32,416 nucleotides of DNA from contig WJKR01000025.1 in NCBI GenBank assembly GCA_014729015.1, positions 1 to 32,416 of the forward strand, read 5' to 3'. Of the stretch, positions 1 through 5,021 are shown piece by piece (positions within the stretch are counted from its first letter, which is position 1; the number at the start of each line of letters is the position of its first letter). The notes beneath the pieces are model-generated. The model was not told the origin of the DNA and searched no databases. It saw nothing but the letters and a program-made list of their open reading frames with translations. A program made the position numbers and the translations under genes. The stretch comes from Candidatus Woesearchaeota archaeon (GTDB lineage: Archaea; Nanobdellota; Nanobdellia; Woesearchaeales; WJKR01).

Positions 1-440
1 CCTTAGGGGCGATCTACACGTTCATCCTCTTTGCTGTCATCCTCTACCTGTTCGGGCCGAAAGCATTCTCATTGCCGTTCGGTATATTCGTCATCCTCTC
101 CGCCATCGTAGCGTACCCCATCAAATGGTTGTTCCCGACGCCGCGACCGGACCACAAAGAGAAACCGTTGCCGAAGAAGATAACCCTTTGGAACTACTGG
201 CGCGTCATCGACCACGGCGCCTTCCCCAGCGCACACGCCATGAGGACCGCAGGACTAGCGACACTCTCATTATTTTTCTCATCGCGAACATTACACGTAA
301 TCTTACTAGCATTATTCTTCATTATCTGCTGGTCACGAATACACCACAGAAGGCATTACCCGAAGGATGTCATCGGCGGAGCGCTGATGGGAATAATCAT
401 CATGGTGCTCTCCTGGTACCTCGCGCAATGCATGCACTAA
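1..440 (+). CDS. PAP2-family (type 2 phosphatidic acid / polyprenyl-pyrophosphate) phosphatase, 5' partial
   Basis: The frame is open from position 3. It has the PAP2 motifs C1 KWLFPTPRP, C2 FPSAHA and C3 SRIHHRRHYPKDVIGG, plus several hydrophobic helices. Confidence 0.88.
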   Translation, partial: LGAIYTFILFAVILYLFGPKAFSLPFGIFVILSAIVAYPIKWLFPTPRPDHKEKPLPKKITLWNYWRVIDHGAFPSAHAMRTAGLATLSLFFSSRTLHVILLALFFIICWSRIHHRRHYPKDVIGGALMGIIIMVLSWYLAQCMH

Positions 441-533
441 AGAAATATTTCCAAAAAAATTGAATTACCAACGAAATTCTTACCTCAAACCAATTAAAAA
501 ATCCTGTTTTCTCATCCACCCGGTGATACAACA

Positions 534-716
534 ATGGGATTAACCAACAAGAAAGAAGAACAACTCAAGAAGATGCCAAAGATAGAAACTAAACTGAGCA
601 AGAGTAATGATGGAAAGTTTGTCATACACCAAACCATTATTACGCATGTTCGACCAGTGACGTACTATCAAGCAGTGCTTGAGAACAATGAAGAAGTGGC
701 TGAGGAATCAGCCTAA
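534..716 (+). CDS. Small hypothetical protein (60 aa)
   Basis: Archaeal SD GGTGA at 522-526 upstream of the ATG; T-rich tract after the stop; protein-like sequence with a basic N-terminus and acidic tail. Confidence 0.7.
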   Translation: MGLTNKKEEQLKKMPKIETKLSKSNDGKFVIHQTIITHVRPVTYYQAVLENNEEVAEESA

Positions 717-770
717 TTCTTTATTTCTTTTGCATAATTCTTTTAAACTACTTTTTTTTCTCAATCCGAA

Positions 771-1271
771 CGTCATAAGGCCAGAATTCTTCAGGCTTCA
801 ACGTCTGAAGTATACGGTGATCCTGAGGTACACCCTCAAAAGGAAGAGTATAGGGGGAGTGTTAACACTATTGGTCTTCGTGCGTGTTATGATGAGGGGA
901 AGCGTTGTGCAGAAACACTCATGTTTGACTATCACCGGAAGAATGGTGTGGACATAAGAGTTGTGAGAATTTTCAGCACGTATGGTCCTAGAATGGCTGC
1001 TGATGACGGGCGTGTTGTTTCTAATTTTATCATACAAGCTCTTGATGGTGATGATATCACTATCTTTGGTGATGGTTCCCAAACAAGGAGTTTTTGCTAT
1101 GTTGATGATTTGTTGAATGCTATGGTATCTTTCATGAACACGCTAAACTGCACAGGTCCTTTGAATATTGGCAATCCTACTGAATTCACTATTAAAGAGC
1201 TAGCACAAGAGGTTATTTCTTTGACAAGTTCTACCTCTAAATTAGTTTATTTCTTTGTACTAAAGATTTAA
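771..1271 (+). pseudogene. uxs: UDP-glucuronate decarboxylase (UDP-xylose synthase) fragment
   Basis: The frame of ORF 921 extends upstream as [48 protein letters not shown] and continues ...[13 protein letters not shown]...[11 protein letters not shown], all UXS signatures. An in-frame TAA lies at 744-746. The N-terminal GxxGxxG Rossmann segment and the normal C-terminus are absent. Confidence 0.88.
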
Positions 1272-1277
1272 AAAAAA
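1270..1277 (-). terminator. Oligo-T terminator of the 5S rRNA gene
   Basis: A8 on the + strand equals T8 immediately downstream of the 5S 3' end on the - strand. Confidence 0.6.
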
Positions 1278-1278
1278 G

Positions 1279-1395
1279 GAGGACAGCTTTCCGGTTTTCC
1301 CACACATAAGTGCAGTACCAGCCGAAACGTGGGCATGCTTAACTATCCGTGTTCGAAATGGGAACGGGTGGAACCACGCCGCTTTGACCGTCCAC
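1279..1395 (-). rRNA. rrf: 5S ribosomal RNA (stand-alone)
   Basis: The reverse complement reads GGACGGUCAAAGCGGCGUGGUUCCACCCGUUCCCAUUUCGAACACGGAUAGUUAAGCAUGCCCACGUUUCGGCUGGUACUGCACUUAUGUGUGGGAAAACCGGAAAGCUGUCC. It contains the CCCAUnnCGAAC and GUUAAG loop motifs and GGUACUG, and helix I is formed by GGACGG/CUGUCC. Confidence 0.95.
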
Positions 1396-1409
1396 TGTTG
1401 GGAAACACG

Positions 1410-1423
1410 ATTTCATTTATAAA
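1410..1423 (-). promoter_or_regulatory. TATA box promoter of the 5S rRNA gene
   Basis: TTTATAAA at 1423-1416 (- strand), about 21-28 nt upstream of the 5S 5' end. Confidence 0.7.
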
Positions 1424-1436
1424 GTTAATGGTGAGT

Positions 1437-2420
1437 CTATTTTAATAGATTTGTGCTCGAGAAGCCTTCTATCCTTGGTATTAGGTATATTTTACCACCA
1501 TATTTCTTGACAGTTGTTGCTTCTATGCAGTTCTCTCCGTACTCAGCGCCGTTGGCATGTATATCTGGTTTTATATCTTCTACTATCTTCCTTGGGTCTG
1601 GCTCTGCAAAGCTGGTGATAAGATCGACTGCTGTGTACATGCTCAGCATACGTTGCCGTGCTTGTAGCGTGTTAACAGGTCTGTTTTTTCCTTTGTTCTT
1701 TCTGATGCTTTCATCCTCATTAAGTGCAACGATAAGCACATCCCCTTGTTTTTTTGCTTGTGAGAGAATGTAATCATGGCCTTCATGGAGGAGATCGAAG
1801 GCGCCGTTGAGCGTTACAATTTTTTTGCCTGCTGCTTTGAGCTCTGCTACTCGGTTTTTGATGGTTGTTCGTGATACTATTTTTTCTTCTTTAGCCTTAG
1901 CTACAAACGTCGCTGCTTGCAGGAGATCAGACGTGATGTACGCTGGACCTGCGGTTTTTACCTTTTGTAGTGTTACTTTTCCTTGTTCTGTGAGAAGGTG
2001 AATTGCTTTACATCCTATGTTGTTTGCTAGTTTTGTGTCCGATGGTTTGTCACCAATAATCCATGATTGTGTAAGGTCGATGTTATATTCTCTGGCAGCT
2101 TTTTGTGCGAGTGCAGTTTTTGGTTTTCTACATTTGCACACTTCTTCTGGTGAATGTGGGCAATGATATACTTTTTGTATGTTAACTTGTGATTGTTGTA
2201 GTGTATTAGTAAGGTGCTTATTGAACTGGTGCATTTGTTCTTCTGTGTAATATCCTCTTCCTATACCTGACTGGTTGGTAATAATGATTAATTCGAAGTT
2301 TTCTAGAATTTGCAGTCCTTCAATGACTTTGTGGTGAAGGGAGAACTCATCGACTTTGTAAGTGTAGCCACCATCTTTATTGAGTGTGCCATCTCTGTCA
2401 AGAAAGATTGCTGGATTCAT
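1437..2420 (-). CDS. gmhB: Bifunctional heptose-1,7-bisphosphate phosphatase (GmhB) / heptose-1-phosphate nucleotidyltransferase (HldC/RfaE-II)
   Basis: N-terminal HAD IIIA domain with FLDRDGTLN, TNQSGIGRG, CPH..C.CRKP and IGDK.SD. C-terminal nucleotidyltransferase domain with TLNGAFDLLHEGH, K..GD.LIVALN.D.S, KG..RP and EGFSST. Confidence 0.9.
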   Translation of the reverse strand: MNPAIFLDRDGTLNKDGGYTYKVDEFSLHHKVIEGLQILENFELIIITNQSGIGRGYYTEEQMHQFNKHLTNTLQQSQVNIQKVYHCPHSPEEVCKCRKPKTALAQKAAREYNIDLTQSWIIGDKPSDTKLANNIGCKAIHLLTEQGKVTLQKVKTAGPAYITSDLLQAATFVAKAKEEKIVSRTTIKNRVAELKAAGKKIVTLNGAFDLLHEGHDYILSQAKKQGDVLIVALNEDESIRKNKGKNRPVNTLQARQRMLSMYTAVDLITSFAEPDPRKIVEDIKPDIHANGAEYGENCIEATTVKKYGGKIYLIPRIEGFSSTNLLK

Positions 2421-3307
2421 TTTAGCTGTGGTAAATAATCTTTAATACCATCGATAAGCGAGTATTCTGCCTCAAACTTAAGGTGTTTTTTGGCTCGAGT
2501 AGTGTCTGCTTCTGTGTGGTGCTGGTATGTTTTCATATCGTAAGGGCTATCGATATATTCTGGTTGAAGATTTGTTCCAAGAGCTTTATTAATAGCAGCT
2601 ATTAGTTCGTTAAAACTTGTGCCGATACCTGTGCCTACGTTGTAGACTCCACTTTTTGCATCAAGTGCTTTTATGGTTGCTTTAACGACATCTTTGACAT
2701 AAATATGATCTCTTTTGTGTTCGCCGTGCTTGAACAATTTTGGTCTTTTACCTTGTCGCATCTGTTTTATGAGGTGGTATATCATCGATGCGGGTCTTCC
2801 TTTGTGTGTTTCTCCTGGTCCGAAGACATTGAAATACCGTAGACCAACGACCTGTAGGTCATCGTAGTGGTGGCTTGCCATCTCGTCTATGATGAGCTTT
2901 GATTCAGCGTATGCGGTGGTAATCTCTTTTGCTTGGTCTTCTTTTTGTGGTGCCGGACCGTTGCCGTATAAGCCTGCTGTTGACGCGTAGACAAGTTTTG
3001 CTTTTTTCTCTTTGGCAAGCTCCAGTATGTTTTGAAATCCTTTGACGTTGGCTTCGAGGAGTCTGGCATCCTCTTCGTAGCGTGGGTCTGTGATTGCTGC
3101 TATATGGAAGATTGCATCTATGTTTCCTTCAACAGTGAATGGTTTGCTGACGTCTTGCTCGATTGTTACCCCTTTGCATGTTTCGAGGTTGTCTTTGTGT
3201 CCGCTAGAGAAATCGTCGATAACAATGGTTTCGTGGTTTTGTCGTTCAAGTTCTTTCACAAGGTTGCTGCCGATAAACCCTGCTCCACCCGTAATGACGC
3301 ATTTCAT
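2417..3307 (-). CDS. hldD: ADP-L-glycero-D-manno-heptose 6-epimerase-like extended SDR
   Basis: Start revised to ATG 3307 (MKCVITGGAGFIGS). YAESK catalytic motif, HldD-like GLRYFNVFGPGETHKGRPASMI, RDHIYVKDV and YQHHTEAD. ATGA overlap with gmhB. Confidence 0.8.
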   Translation of the reverse strand: MKCVITGGAGFIGSNLVKELERQNHETIVIDDFSSGHKDNLETCKGVTIEQDVSKPFTVEGNIDAIFHIAAITDPRYEEDARLLEANVKGFQNILELAKEKKAKLVYASTAGLYGNGPAPQKEDQAKEITTAYAESKLIIDEMASHHYDDLQVVGLRYFNVFGPGETHKGRPASMIYHLIKQMRQGKRPKLFKHGEHKRDHIYVKDVVKATIKALDAKSGVYNVGTGIGTSFNELIAAINKALGTNLQPEYIDSPYDMKTYQHHTEADTTRAKKHLKFEAEYSLIDGIKDYLPQLK

Positions 3308-3338
3308 GTTATTATTAATGGTGCTTTTTTTATATGCA

Positions 3339-4016
3339 TTATGCATCGAGGTTCTGTTCGAAGGTTTGTGCTTTGACAAGATCCCTGCCTTTTCGACGCT
3401 TAAATTGGACGAGTCCTTGTAACTCTAGCTCATCCATATATCTATAGAATGATGCTTTTGAGCAGTATTTTTTCTGATCAACAACTACATCTCGTAAACT
3501 GATCTTTGTGAGATCTCCTTTGGCTACTTCGCTAAGAATTTGTTGTTTGATGATGTCTTTACGATTCCGCTCATAATTTTTGAGCAGGTCTTCTTTGAGT
3601 TTATCTGCAACTAGTTTCTGACTTTTTATGATTGGTTCTGGTTGTTGTATATTTTGTTCTTCTCTAACAGGTATTTCTTCAATTTTTTGCTCAGTCTCAG
3701 GCTGAGACTGGGTTGAGAAAACGCTTGATTCTTTTGTATTTAACTCTTTCAAGGCTTTTCCGACACCTTCGGCAACTGCTTCTTTGAGAATGAGTCTCAG
3801 CGTCTCAGGGTTGAGAATGGGTTGAGACTCGGATGATTTTCGCTCTTCTTCGAAAGAACGTCGGACATTTTCTTCTTTTTGCAACTGCTCCCTTACCCTC
3901 TGCAATTCTTCCTCGAACAAAGAAAACTTCGCGTTGAGCTCTGAGATGTCCTTTTTCACTTCCTGGAAGCTCTTTCTGATTCGCTTCCGATCGTTCCCCA
4001 ACAAATCCAATCTCAT
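3339..4016 (-). CDS. Hypothetical protein with N-terminal coiled coil and C-terminal wHTH-like DNA-binding domain
   Basis: Heptad-rich N-terminus, polar linker, then LTKISLRDVVVDQKKYCSKASFYRYMDELELQGLVQF, resembling a recognition helix plus wing. TTAAATA TATA box at 4046-4040. Confidence 0.7.
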   Translation of the reverse strand: MRLDLLGNDRKRIRKSFQEVKKDISELNAKFSLFEEELQRVREQLQKEENVRRSFEEERKSSESQPILNPETLRLILKEAVAEGVGKALKELNTKESSVFSTQSQPETEQKIEEIPVREEQNIQQPEPIIKSQKLVADKLKEDLLKNYERNRKDIIKQQILSEVAKGDLTKISLRDVVVDQKKYCSKASFYRYMDELELQGLVQFKRRKGRDLVKAQTFEQNLDA

Positions 4017-4151
4017 GCACGAAGAGGAATAATCCTCGGTATTTAATCCTTTCTCACGCTGAGACTGGTCTCAAAAAAACACGTTTGTTTATAAATGAAA
4101 TTCTCAATTAAGACTTTTCCATGTGCAAAAAGGCTGAGACTGAGCTGAGAA
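3689..4151. repeat. Array of TGAGA(C/A) / (G/T)TCTCA boxes in both orientations
   Basis: 16 TGAGA/TCTCA-containing boxes starting at 3694, 3703, 3714, 3785, 3794, 3802, 3812, 3823, 3942, 4010, 4051, 4060, 4068, 4101, 4135 and 4146. GCTGAGACTG occurs 3 times (3701, 4058, 4133) and GGGTTGAGA 3 times (3710, 3808, 3819). Palindromes: CAGTCTCAG-G-CTGAGACTG (3692-3710) and TGAGAC-TG-GTCTCA (4060-4073). Confidence 0.85.
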
Positions 4152-4194
4152 TGTCTTTTTTTCCCTCATCACAAGCAACTCTCTTTCAGAACGC

Positions 4195-4202
4195 TTATAA
4201 AT
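4195..4202 (+). promoter_or_regulatory. TATA box for a leaderless cysQ operon transcript
   Basis: TTATAAAT ends 21 nt before ATG 4224; no SD in between. Confidence 0.55.
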
Positions 4203-4223: not shown

Positions 4224-5021
4224 ATGGAATTAGGGAAAGAAGCATCAATCGCACAAGAACTCGCACTCCAGGCAGCGGCTATCATCATGGGCTTTTACCA
4301 ACAAGATATGTCCGTAGCTGAGAAGGAAGATAAGAGCCCTATTACCGAAGCGGACCTTGCGGCGAACAAGCACATACTCAAAGGACTCAAGGAATTATTC
4401 CCAGATGATGCCATCCTCTCAGAAGAAGCGGCTGACGACAAGGCAAGGCTCGACAAGAGCCGGGTGTGGACAGTCGATCCTCTGGATGGCACCAAGGAGT
4501 TCATCAAGCGGAACGGCGAGTTCACCGTCAACATAGCCCTAGCTATCGATGGTGTGCCGGTCGTCGGGGTGGTGTGCTTACCGGCGAAGGACGAGTTCTA
4601 CGCGACTGATGGGGAGGATGTGTTCGTCATCAAGGATAGTGAACGCTTGCCCATCAAAGTCTCCGACAAGGATGACTTTCGGGAGATGACGCTGATGAAG
4701 AGCCGCTCGCACGCCTCAGAAGCACTCATAGCCATCGCCAAGAGGGCAGGCTTCAAGGATGAGAAACCTGCTGGCAGCGCCCTCAAAGGGTGCCTCGTCG
4801 CCTCAGGAGACGCGGACGTCTATATCAGGATGGGGAACACGCATGAATGGGATATCTGCGCGTTGGACGCAGTCATCAGGGCTGCAGGGGGCGTCGTGAC
4901 CGACCTGGAAGGCAATCCTTTAAAATACAACAAGGATGACACCCTCGTCAGGGGGTTCGTGGCTTCTAATGGTAAGAAGCACGAAGCATTGGTGGGGTTA
5001 ATACAAGATGGACAGGCTTGA
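4224..5021 (+). CDS. cysQ: 3'(2'),5'-bisphosphate nucleotidase CysQ (PAP phosphatase)
   Basis: [48 protein letters not shown] and EWD motifs. Confidence 0.93.

Follow-up and report, generated by a model that had tools for sequence, protein, structure and literature searches.

The iterons of the phage lambda O protein lie inside gene O itself, in the part that encodes a flexible linker and beside an AT-rich stretch, in ori-lambda. On plasmid R1, ParR recognises parC, where ten 11-bp iterons surround the parMR promoter, and TubR, a winged helix-turn-helix (wHTH) protein, binds tubC. The plasmid Rep initiators RepA, pi and TrfA contain winged-helix domains and repress themselves at inverted repeats, and in E. 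coli the datA and DARS loci, with IHF, act on the initiator at a distance from oriC by titrating or remodelling it. To our knowledge, DPANN archaea have not yet been grown alone, and their gene control and cell cycle are almost unknown. Here, we analysed a stretch of 32,416 nucleotides (the window; contig WJKR01000025.1, hereafter C11) from the genome of a Candidatus Woesearchaeota archaeon (GCA_014729015.1, hereafter G000; 838,599 bases in 70 contigs, 54.7% GC), in which a wHTH gene on the minus strand (3339-4016) carries an iteron-like array of TGAGA/TCTCA boxes in its upstream region and within its own coding sequence (CDS). We estimate a probability of roughly 0.6 that gene and array form a conserved self-targeting module of a wHTH protein and its iterons, which is autoregulatory, whose array has invaded the CDS, and which is not the replication origin of this genome.

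The open reading frame (ORF) at 3339-4016 encodes 225 amino acids, comprising a coiled-coil region and a wHTH domain with the recognition helix CSKASFYRY. Judged from the ORF, its homologues and an AlphaFold (AF2) model, it is a real gene of an uncharacterised, unnamed family of Woesearchaeales. Twenty homologues with 29-55% identity were found, one of whose records is labelled Candidatus Woesearchaeota, and the nearest Atlas clusters are annotated as 'hypothetical protein' from Woesearchaeota. A profile search recovered 586 representative clusters at E ≤ 1e-3, and, of 401 genomes sampled from the order, 119 contain a member of the family (E ≤ 1e-8). This tally, and no other claim made here, draws on six unpublished genomes (G133, G184, G206, G208, G273 and G335), without which it is 113 of 395. 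Searches of the protein against Pfam, NCBIfam and PDB sequences returned only sub-threshold coiled-coil noise, with no family above the cut-off, and tblastn found no paralogue of the gene in G000. No viral or plasmid relatives of the protein were found, so that a viral or plasmid source of the module is unsupported. For close relatives sharing the long linker, a scan of contigs gave the same-genus record only, a scan of metagenomes gave two loci, and an order-wide genome search gave none further. In the literature, we found no description of the family or of GTCTCA iterons in archaea. A preprint (bioRxiv 10.64898/2026.05.13.725050) presents OG0000296 as a very divergent single-copy wHTH regulator and a Nanobdellota-wide marker; this might be the same family as the window's protein.

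In the AF2 model (mean predicted local distance difference test score, pLDDT, 75.8), helices at residues 2-62 and 70-100 are followed by disorder at 99-133 and by the wHTH domain at 139-216. The two long N-terminal helices are separated by a break with low pLDDT at residues 64-66. Residues 139-216 are predicted to follow the order H-H-H-H-E-E at pLDDT 90-95, as in a wHTH fold, and the best Foldseek matches were wHTH proteins of the Fur, PadR, MarR and ArsR types at E 3e-3 and weaker, with none at E ≤ 1e-3. A homodimer prediction with two copies of the protein (alignment A1) scored 0.31 against a mark of 0.42 and was not used as evidence.

At this locus, TGAGA starts at 3509, 3703, 3714, 3785, 3812, 3823, 3942, 4060, 4135 and 4146, and TCTCA starts at 3695, 3795, 3803, 4011, 4052, 4069 and 4102. 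The initial annotation had counted 16 boxes in about 460 bp, where about one was expected, and our count bears this out. Seventeen boxes lie within 3339-4151 and 16 within 3694-4150, whereas the genome-wide density of both pentamers (1.49 per kb; 648 + 600 in 838,599 bases) predicts about 0.7 in 457 bp. Among 16,103 sliding 500-bp windows of G000, the highest count, 16 boxes, is found at C11:3651, and the best window elsewhere holds nine, on contig C33, in a same-strand, multiple-of-three coding repeat; the motif is thus far denser here than in the rest of the genome. Likewise, six of the genome's 56 CTGAGAC/GTCTCAG heptamers are at this locus.

Two clusters of boxes lie inside the CDS. Cluster A (3692-3719) consists of GTCTCA at 3694-3699, TGAGAC at 3703-3708 and, after an 11-bp step, TGAGA at 3714-3718, and it contains a perfect 19-bp palindrome at 3692-3710 (CAGTCTCAG-g-CTGAGACTG). 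Cluster B (3785-3828) consists of TGAGA at 3785, GTCTCA at 3794 and 3802, TGAGA at 3812 and TGAGAC at 3823. Upstream of the gene, the promoter-proximal cluster C (4052-4073) comprises TCTCA at 4052-4056 and an inverted pair of TGAGAC at 4060-4065 and GTCTCA at 4068-4073, and the distal cluster D (4135-4150) comprises TGAGAC at 4135-4140 and, again after an 11-bp step, TGAGA at 4146-4150. The 12-bp matches between CDS and intergenic region that had been quoted earlier are exact: AGGCTGAGACTG occurs at 3699-3710 and 4131-4142, and CTGAGACTGAGC at 4134-4145 and, inverted, at 3689-3700. We compared the window's genome with a same-genus relative genome (G001) and a metagenome locus (L010), in both of which the cluster D block CTCAGTCTCAGCC is invariant. 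In the alignment of these upstream regions (A2), TCTCA at 4102-4106 and its degenerate partner TAAGAC at 4109-4114 (together 4102-4114) are, on this comparison, a decayed copy of a pair, GTCTCA-N2-TGAGA, of which G001 and L010 retain the intact form.

Array and gene stay together across relatives. Homologous loci were gathered by protein similarity alone, and boxes were counted afterwards, from -500 to +400 bp around the gene and, for comparison, in the flanks. The loci were divided by their recognition helix into A-type (CS[KR]A[ST]FYRY, n = 35) and S-type (CSKS[ST]FYR[LI], n = 9). At least three GTCTCA/TGAGAC hexamers were present in 33 of the 35 A-type loci, both exceptions lying at contig ends, and summed over the A-type table the 46.4 kb near the genes contained 261 hexamers and the 71.9 kb of flanks 26. 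The core of the 287 boxes is (A/T)GTCTCA(A/G), and their same-orientation spacings peak at 11 (49), 22 (26) and 33 (26) bp. The doublet GTCTCA-N5-GTCTCA has 22 exact matches in 41 related genomes, 20 of them beside a homologue, while the reversed-pattern control gave three. Two doublets have no detected homologue alongside (G029:C15:24189 and G009:C11:149294). In the complete genome G087 (909,956 bp), the sole cluster among 200 hexamers is at the wHTH gene (six per 500 bp, next best three), as are all four hexamer pairs within 35 bp. The compared genomes are kin and non-independent, yet they come from many families and range in GC content from 28 to 51%.

Moreover, the box changes together with the protein. 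S-type loci hold 0-4 GTCTCA hexamers and 6-22 TCCCA boxes in the form (G/T)TCCCA, with 11-bp spacing upstream of the gene in six of the nine, and A-type loci never hold more than three TCCCA. Two genomes (G015 and G020) hold paralogues of both types, each with a separate array. A change from T to C in the box therefore accompanies two residue changes in the recognition helix, GTCTCA going with CSKA[ST]FYRY and (G/T)TCCCA with CSKS[ST]FYR[LI]. The initial annotation had suggested just such a comparison, asking whether homologues carry their own arrays that covary with the recognition helix, and the answer is positive. This covariation, above all, leads us to infer that the boxes are bound by the protein. 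With the pairing and the phasing, it strongly supports the boxes as the wHTH protein's own iterons, that is, putative binding sites, and with them the earlier proposal of a DNA-binding protein with a cognate cis array. Protein family and DNA site would then be known together, with a natural specificity switch between them (GTCTCA/KAS..Y versus TCCCA/KSS..L/I).

The boxes inside the CDS bear on whether DNA or protein is under selection. Cluster A encodes F-S-T-Q-S-Q-P-E-T-E (residues ~100-108), and cluster B encodes S-E-S-Q-P-I-L-N-P-E-T-L-R-L-I-L-K (residues ~63-77). The boxes had been placed in the linker between coiled coil and wHTH domain, which is mostly right: cluster A is at the start of the disordered linker (99-133) before the wHTH domain, but cluster B falls at the break of the N-terminal helices instead. 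The codon alignment places the same hexamer in three reading frames and both orientations within the CDS. In G001, SESQPSLS is encoded by an 11-bp unit, GAGTCTCAGCC, repeated twice in tandem and read in two frames, and PETLRL is encoded by TGAGAC-gc-TGAGAC. At columns where the proteins of G000, G001 and L010 all share a degenerate amino acid, the codons are identical in the three genomes at 8 of 9 third-base sites inside boxes versus 23 of 66 outside (Fisher one-sided p = 0.003). Codons identical in all three are TTC TCA and GAG in cluster A and TCT, CTC, GAG, CTG and AGA in cluster B. The nearly invariant linker residues S64, Q65, L68, L73, R74 and S101 are box-encoded, and the residues flanking L68 vary (S/I/N and S/N/K) in ways that preserve nnT-CTC-Ann. 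The frozen synonymous sites, the use of three frames and both orientations and the flanks of L68 argue for selection on DNA as the better reading of the intragenic boxes, as the initial annotation had proposed from their differing codon phases and orientations.

Conversely, the boxes could have arisen by chance or as a by-product of selection on the SESQ, LRL and ETE peptides, motifs that are kept in 17-18 of 18 close homologues. We find this hardly credible, since one hexamer is read in three frames and in either orientation, synonymous sites are frozen within boxes and nowhere else, the same hexamer stands in upstream non-coding DNA here and in 30 or more other genomes, and shorter family members lacking the linker keep the array. 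Intragenic boxes are limited to the long-linker forms, namely G000, G001 and L010, plus L012 (from G009, a different family). Apparent in-CDS boxes of L014, and probably of L044, were rejected as an artefact of an over-long ORF call. The boxes coincide with the least structured regions of the protein. In this genus, the array has probably also spread into DNA that encodes these regions, where selection on DNA would fix the codons, and hence the apparent conservation of the linker (SESQP.L., LRL, FS, PETE). The near-invariance of the linker would then be explained by DNA sites and not by protein function, a case of dual coding that calls for caution in reading linker conservation. As in lambda O, the DNA in the window would serve both as code and as putative binding site in a linker-coding part, near an AT-rich stretch. 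Different from lambda O, the protein is an unrelated archaeal wHTH protein, most of the array and all of the family-wide conservation are in the promoter and not in the CDS, and the evidence for an origin leads away from the window, to the cdc6 locus of contig C7 (see below).

On the upstream side, a TATA-like element (ATTAAATA, minus strand, 4040-4047) lies 24-31 nt before the ATG of the wHTH gene, and recurs as ATAAATA in G001 and L010 (A2); it is probably the promoter of a leaderless wHTH mRNA. Boxes of cluster C stand at -40, -48 and -57 relative to the ATG (4052-4073), and TCTCA at 4052-4056 reads on the coding strand as TGAGA at -40, the position of the B recognition element (BRE). A second TATA-like element, palindromic and conserved in the genus (A2), lies at 4088-4095 (TTTATAAA) and may likewise function in the promoter. 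Among G000, G001 and L010, the proximal 135 bp are better conserved than the protein, which is ~50% identical. In the 21 A-type loci with an anchored start, a TGAGA box at -40 to -47 abuts a TATA-like element near -30 in 11. A TATA-like element at about -30 is also seen again in distant relatives. From the boxes around the TATA-like elements of the gene's own predicted promoter, where they would overlap its BRE/TATA, we infer autoregulation, with repression tentatively favoured as its sign. Of the analogies offered in the initial annotation, an autoregulatory operator array fits best.

On this basis, several copies of the protein would line up along a single face of the helix, as set by the 11-bp phasing, and occupy the inverted pairs; the bound copies would cover the BRE/TATA of their own, probably leaderless, promoter, so that the protein would set its own level. 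The iteron-binding Rep proteins offer a likeness in the winged helix, in the direct and inverted repeats of one box and in an inverted pair over the promoter, which is a predicted one here. They differ from the window's protein, which has a single wHTH domain and not tandem winged helices, for which no replication function is indicated and which has no plasmid or viral relatives among those found.

Several points weigh against an autoregulatory module of this kind. The link between protein and boxes is comparative only, and because the genomes are kin, the counts overstate the support for it. The synonymous test rests on three sequences, and a difference does occur at one of the in-box sites, which belongs to an isolated box. 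At the promoter, 10 of the 21 anchored loci have no -40 box, 14 of the 35 loci could not be anchored, and the starts and TATA elements are themselves predicted. Phased GTCTCA triplets also occur in viral DNA, so the motif is not exclusive to the wHTH family. Finally, a genome-unique array of 450 bp exceeds the needs of simple autoregulation and might reflect a role that is structural or chromosomal, and autoregulation leaves unexplained why origin recognition boxes (ORBs) are associated with the array in 25 of 35 relatives.

The first of these last two points would fit a centromere-like or chromosome-organising site coated by the wHTH protein, with autoregulation as a side effect, as in ParR/parC and TubR/tubC. 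The likeness to these systems lies in short iterons, phased by helical turns, that straddle the promoter of the protein's own gene, here a predicted one, at a single site per replicon. Such a role is consistent with one array per genome, located at the gene, with the length of the phased array (450 bp here), and with the absence of other clustered targets, or a regulon, in G000 and G087. In G000, a search for a regulon gave seven hexamer pairs within 35 bp outside the locus, mostly in coding DNA, with no convincing second target. The hexamer is also rather rare genome-wide under an order-2 model (observed/expected 0.41 and 0.60), though less so under order 4 (0.91 and 0.74); genome-wide avoidance, being modest and model-dependent, was not relied on. 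However, the 70 ORFs scanned around 13 loci included no gene for a partition NTPase (ParA/SegA/TubZ/actin-like) or for Orc1, a partner protein did not emerge, and the module lies on the chromosome among varied housekeeping neighbours; in three complete genomes (G087, G099 and G390), 18-33% of the chromosome separates it from the cdc6 origin. The protein further differs from ParR and TubR in its long N-terminal coiled-coil-like region and in that its sequence shows no detectable similarity to any named family. We therefore regard a centromere-like role as unlikely, although the single site per genome keeps it, like control of the initiator, in consideration. The segregation module suggested in the initial annotation gains no support from the 13 loci but keeps a small probability.

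In archaeal origins of the Orc1/Cdc6 type, ORBs or mini-ORBs, marked by the dyad TCCAnnnGAAA and a G-string, flank an AT-rich unwinding element. With regard to the ORBs here, ORB-like boxes (TCCAnnnGAAAnnnnGGGG) occur within the array in 25 of the 35 A-type relatives, where the G-string of the ORB is often directly fused into GTCTCA (…GGGGTGTCTCA), and G001 and L010 keep a mini-ORB, GAAATAAGGGGGT, in the distal array. The window's locus has no strict and no loose ORB match, nor has the rest of contig C11. A possible decayed ORB-like remnant, TTTCCATGTGCAAAAAGGC, lies at 4116-4134 on the plus strand, aligned to TTTCCACACGAAAAAGGC in G001 and GTTCCATGAGAAAAGGGC in L010 (given as reverse complements of A2); it is uncertain and fails both ORB patterns. 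Summed over 41 related genomes, there were 118 ORB-like matches versus 12 for the reversed control, and ORBs stand beside orc1/cdc6 in at least 15 of the 41, as compared by eye. Each of these genomes thus has ORB-like matches outside the module as well. Besides the ORB adjacent to cdc6, many relatives have a second ORB site at a distance of 8-17 kb from it.

The initial annotation had put forward a replication initiator and its origin as one possible role for this locus. In G000, an origin of the usual archaeal layout is on contig C7 (C7:1794-2250, L105), where an ORB-like box (TTCCAGAGGAAAAAAGGG, 1810-1827), an extremely AT-rich tract of ~220 bp (2010-2230) and another ORB-like box (near 2155-2180) lie between cdc6 (576-1793, minus strand) and a TrmB-like gene that starts at 2253. 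The cumulative GC skew of G087 forms a single V that turns at 590 kb, at cdc6, and at 80 kb, with no turn at the module (868 kb). Given the cdc6 origin on C7, the lack of a local ORB and the skew of G087, the origin reading is disfavoured, and the locus is probably not the replication origin of G000. Three further ORB-like boxes lie at C14:6600-6780 (L106), where a spacer of 480 bp precedes TBP and MCM.

A second or dormant origin served by an initiator of its own, with intragenic iterons resembling those of ori-lambda inside gene O, would account for the ORB-like boxes inside the array of the same-helix relatives, including the mini-ORB of G001 and L010, and for the AT-rich stretch at 3600-3690 that adjoins the boxes. 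We consider it very unlikely, as no ORB is present in the window, a textbook cdc6 origin is on C7 with a further ORB cluster on C14, ORBs stand beside cdc6 in relatives, and the skew of G087 does not turn at the module. The AT-rich tracts next to the boxes, to which the initial annotation had drawn attention, are present but not distinctive: GC at 3451-3750 is 0.35, judged not lower than that of the neighbouring heptose genes (0.37-0.39).

A further role for the ORBs may be sought in control of the initiator. According to a study of Sulfolobus (PMC12141716), UBP binds a motif, ucm, that is required at an origin and has hundreds of sites. A second protein may similarly act beside Orc1 here, where iterons surround ORB-like boxes in most A-type relatives; in contrast to an Orc1/Cdc6 origin, the module lies away from cdc6 and the window's copy is without an ORB, and in contrast to the hundreds of UBP sites, the wHTH array is unique in the genome (G087). 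An orphan ORB within the wHTH iterons could titrate or remodel Orc1/Cdc6 away from oriC, the window's copy having lost its ORB. In favour of this, G087, G099 and G390 have ORBs embedded in arrays that lie a long way from the cdc6 origin, and ORB and box are often fused, but ORBs are absent from 10 of the 35 A-type loci, the window's among them, and the S-type tally is given as 0 of 9, which makes initiator control quite unlikely as the function of the locus; the absence of ORBs from A-type loci implies that the family works without them. A fuller form of the idea, rather unlikely in our judgement, holds that the module is a dedicated control locus of Woesearchaeales chromosomes, present in single copy, in which, ancestrally, a phased filament of wHTH protein would enclose an orphan Orc1/Cdc6 box and thereby keep the initiator titrated or remodelled away from oriC, the window's copy being a derived one in which the ORB was lost and the array invaded the gene. 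If true, the module would be an archaeal counterpart of datA/DARS whose binding sites dictate the sequence of a linker. The tie of the arrays to Orc1-type boxes away from the origin in most lineages suggests that a small DNA-binding protein and the replication initiator are connected in a way not described before.

The genes next to the module offer one more explanation. GC at 300-4200 of the window is 35-46%, against 54.7% genome-wide. Downstream of the wHTH gene lie two low-GC, insertion-like genes of the heptose pathway on the minus strand (1437-3307; a HAD/cytidylyltransferase fusion and an epimerase) and then a 5S rRNA gene (1278-1395, minus strand). The order in the genus is wHTH - 5S rRNA - PAP2, and relative to it the two heptose genes have been inserted before the 5S rRNA gene in the window; in G001, polysaccharide genes precede the wHTH gene and 5S rRNA directly follows it. 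Linkage to 5S rRNA as a general feature was rejected, since it is direct in G001 and G008, interrupted by two genes in the window and not found in the other 32 A-type loci, among which L010 stops at a contig end within apparent 5S sequence. On the other side, a TATA-like element (TTATAAAT, plus strand, 4195-4202) lies ~25 nt before the divergent inositol-monophosphatase/CysQ-like gene (ATG at 4224), a gene that occupies the place of three 11-bp-spaced iterons and the mini-ORB in G001 and L010.

From this arrangement, the initial annotation had suggested a looping regulator of the divergent heptose and 3'-phosphoadenosine-5'-phosphosulfate (PAPS) operons, and the array does lie between both gene groups, with ~50 bp separating cluster D from the TATA-like element that precedes the CysQ-like gene. 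However, the neighbours differ in every family examined (Memo, DUF192, RsmB, ABCE1, phosphoesterase and others) while the array stays with the wHTH gene, the heptose genes are an insertion relative to the same-genus genome, and the PAPS side has replaced distal iterons. Looping between these operons is thus highly improbable.

Outside the locus, GTCTCA-N13-GTCTCAgctTGAGAC at C30:18091-18124 (L104) in G000 has the same inverted pair as 3694-3708 of the window. It falls within coding sequence, where a PilB-like ATPase gene meets a T2SSF-like gene, and may be a second site or chance. In IMG/VR, 114 viral stretches from several phage groups carry three GTCTCA at exact 11-bp spacing, by a rough guess far above chance. 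None of the 80 loci that were fetched (L107-L186) contains a relative of the wHTH protein, and an unrelated phage iteron system shares the hexamer GTCTCA. Among the S-type paralogues, L015 and L020, with TCCCA arrays, adjoin genes for XerC/D-like tyrosine recombinases, and L020 combines three GTCTCA at 11-bp steps with TATTCCCA boxes.

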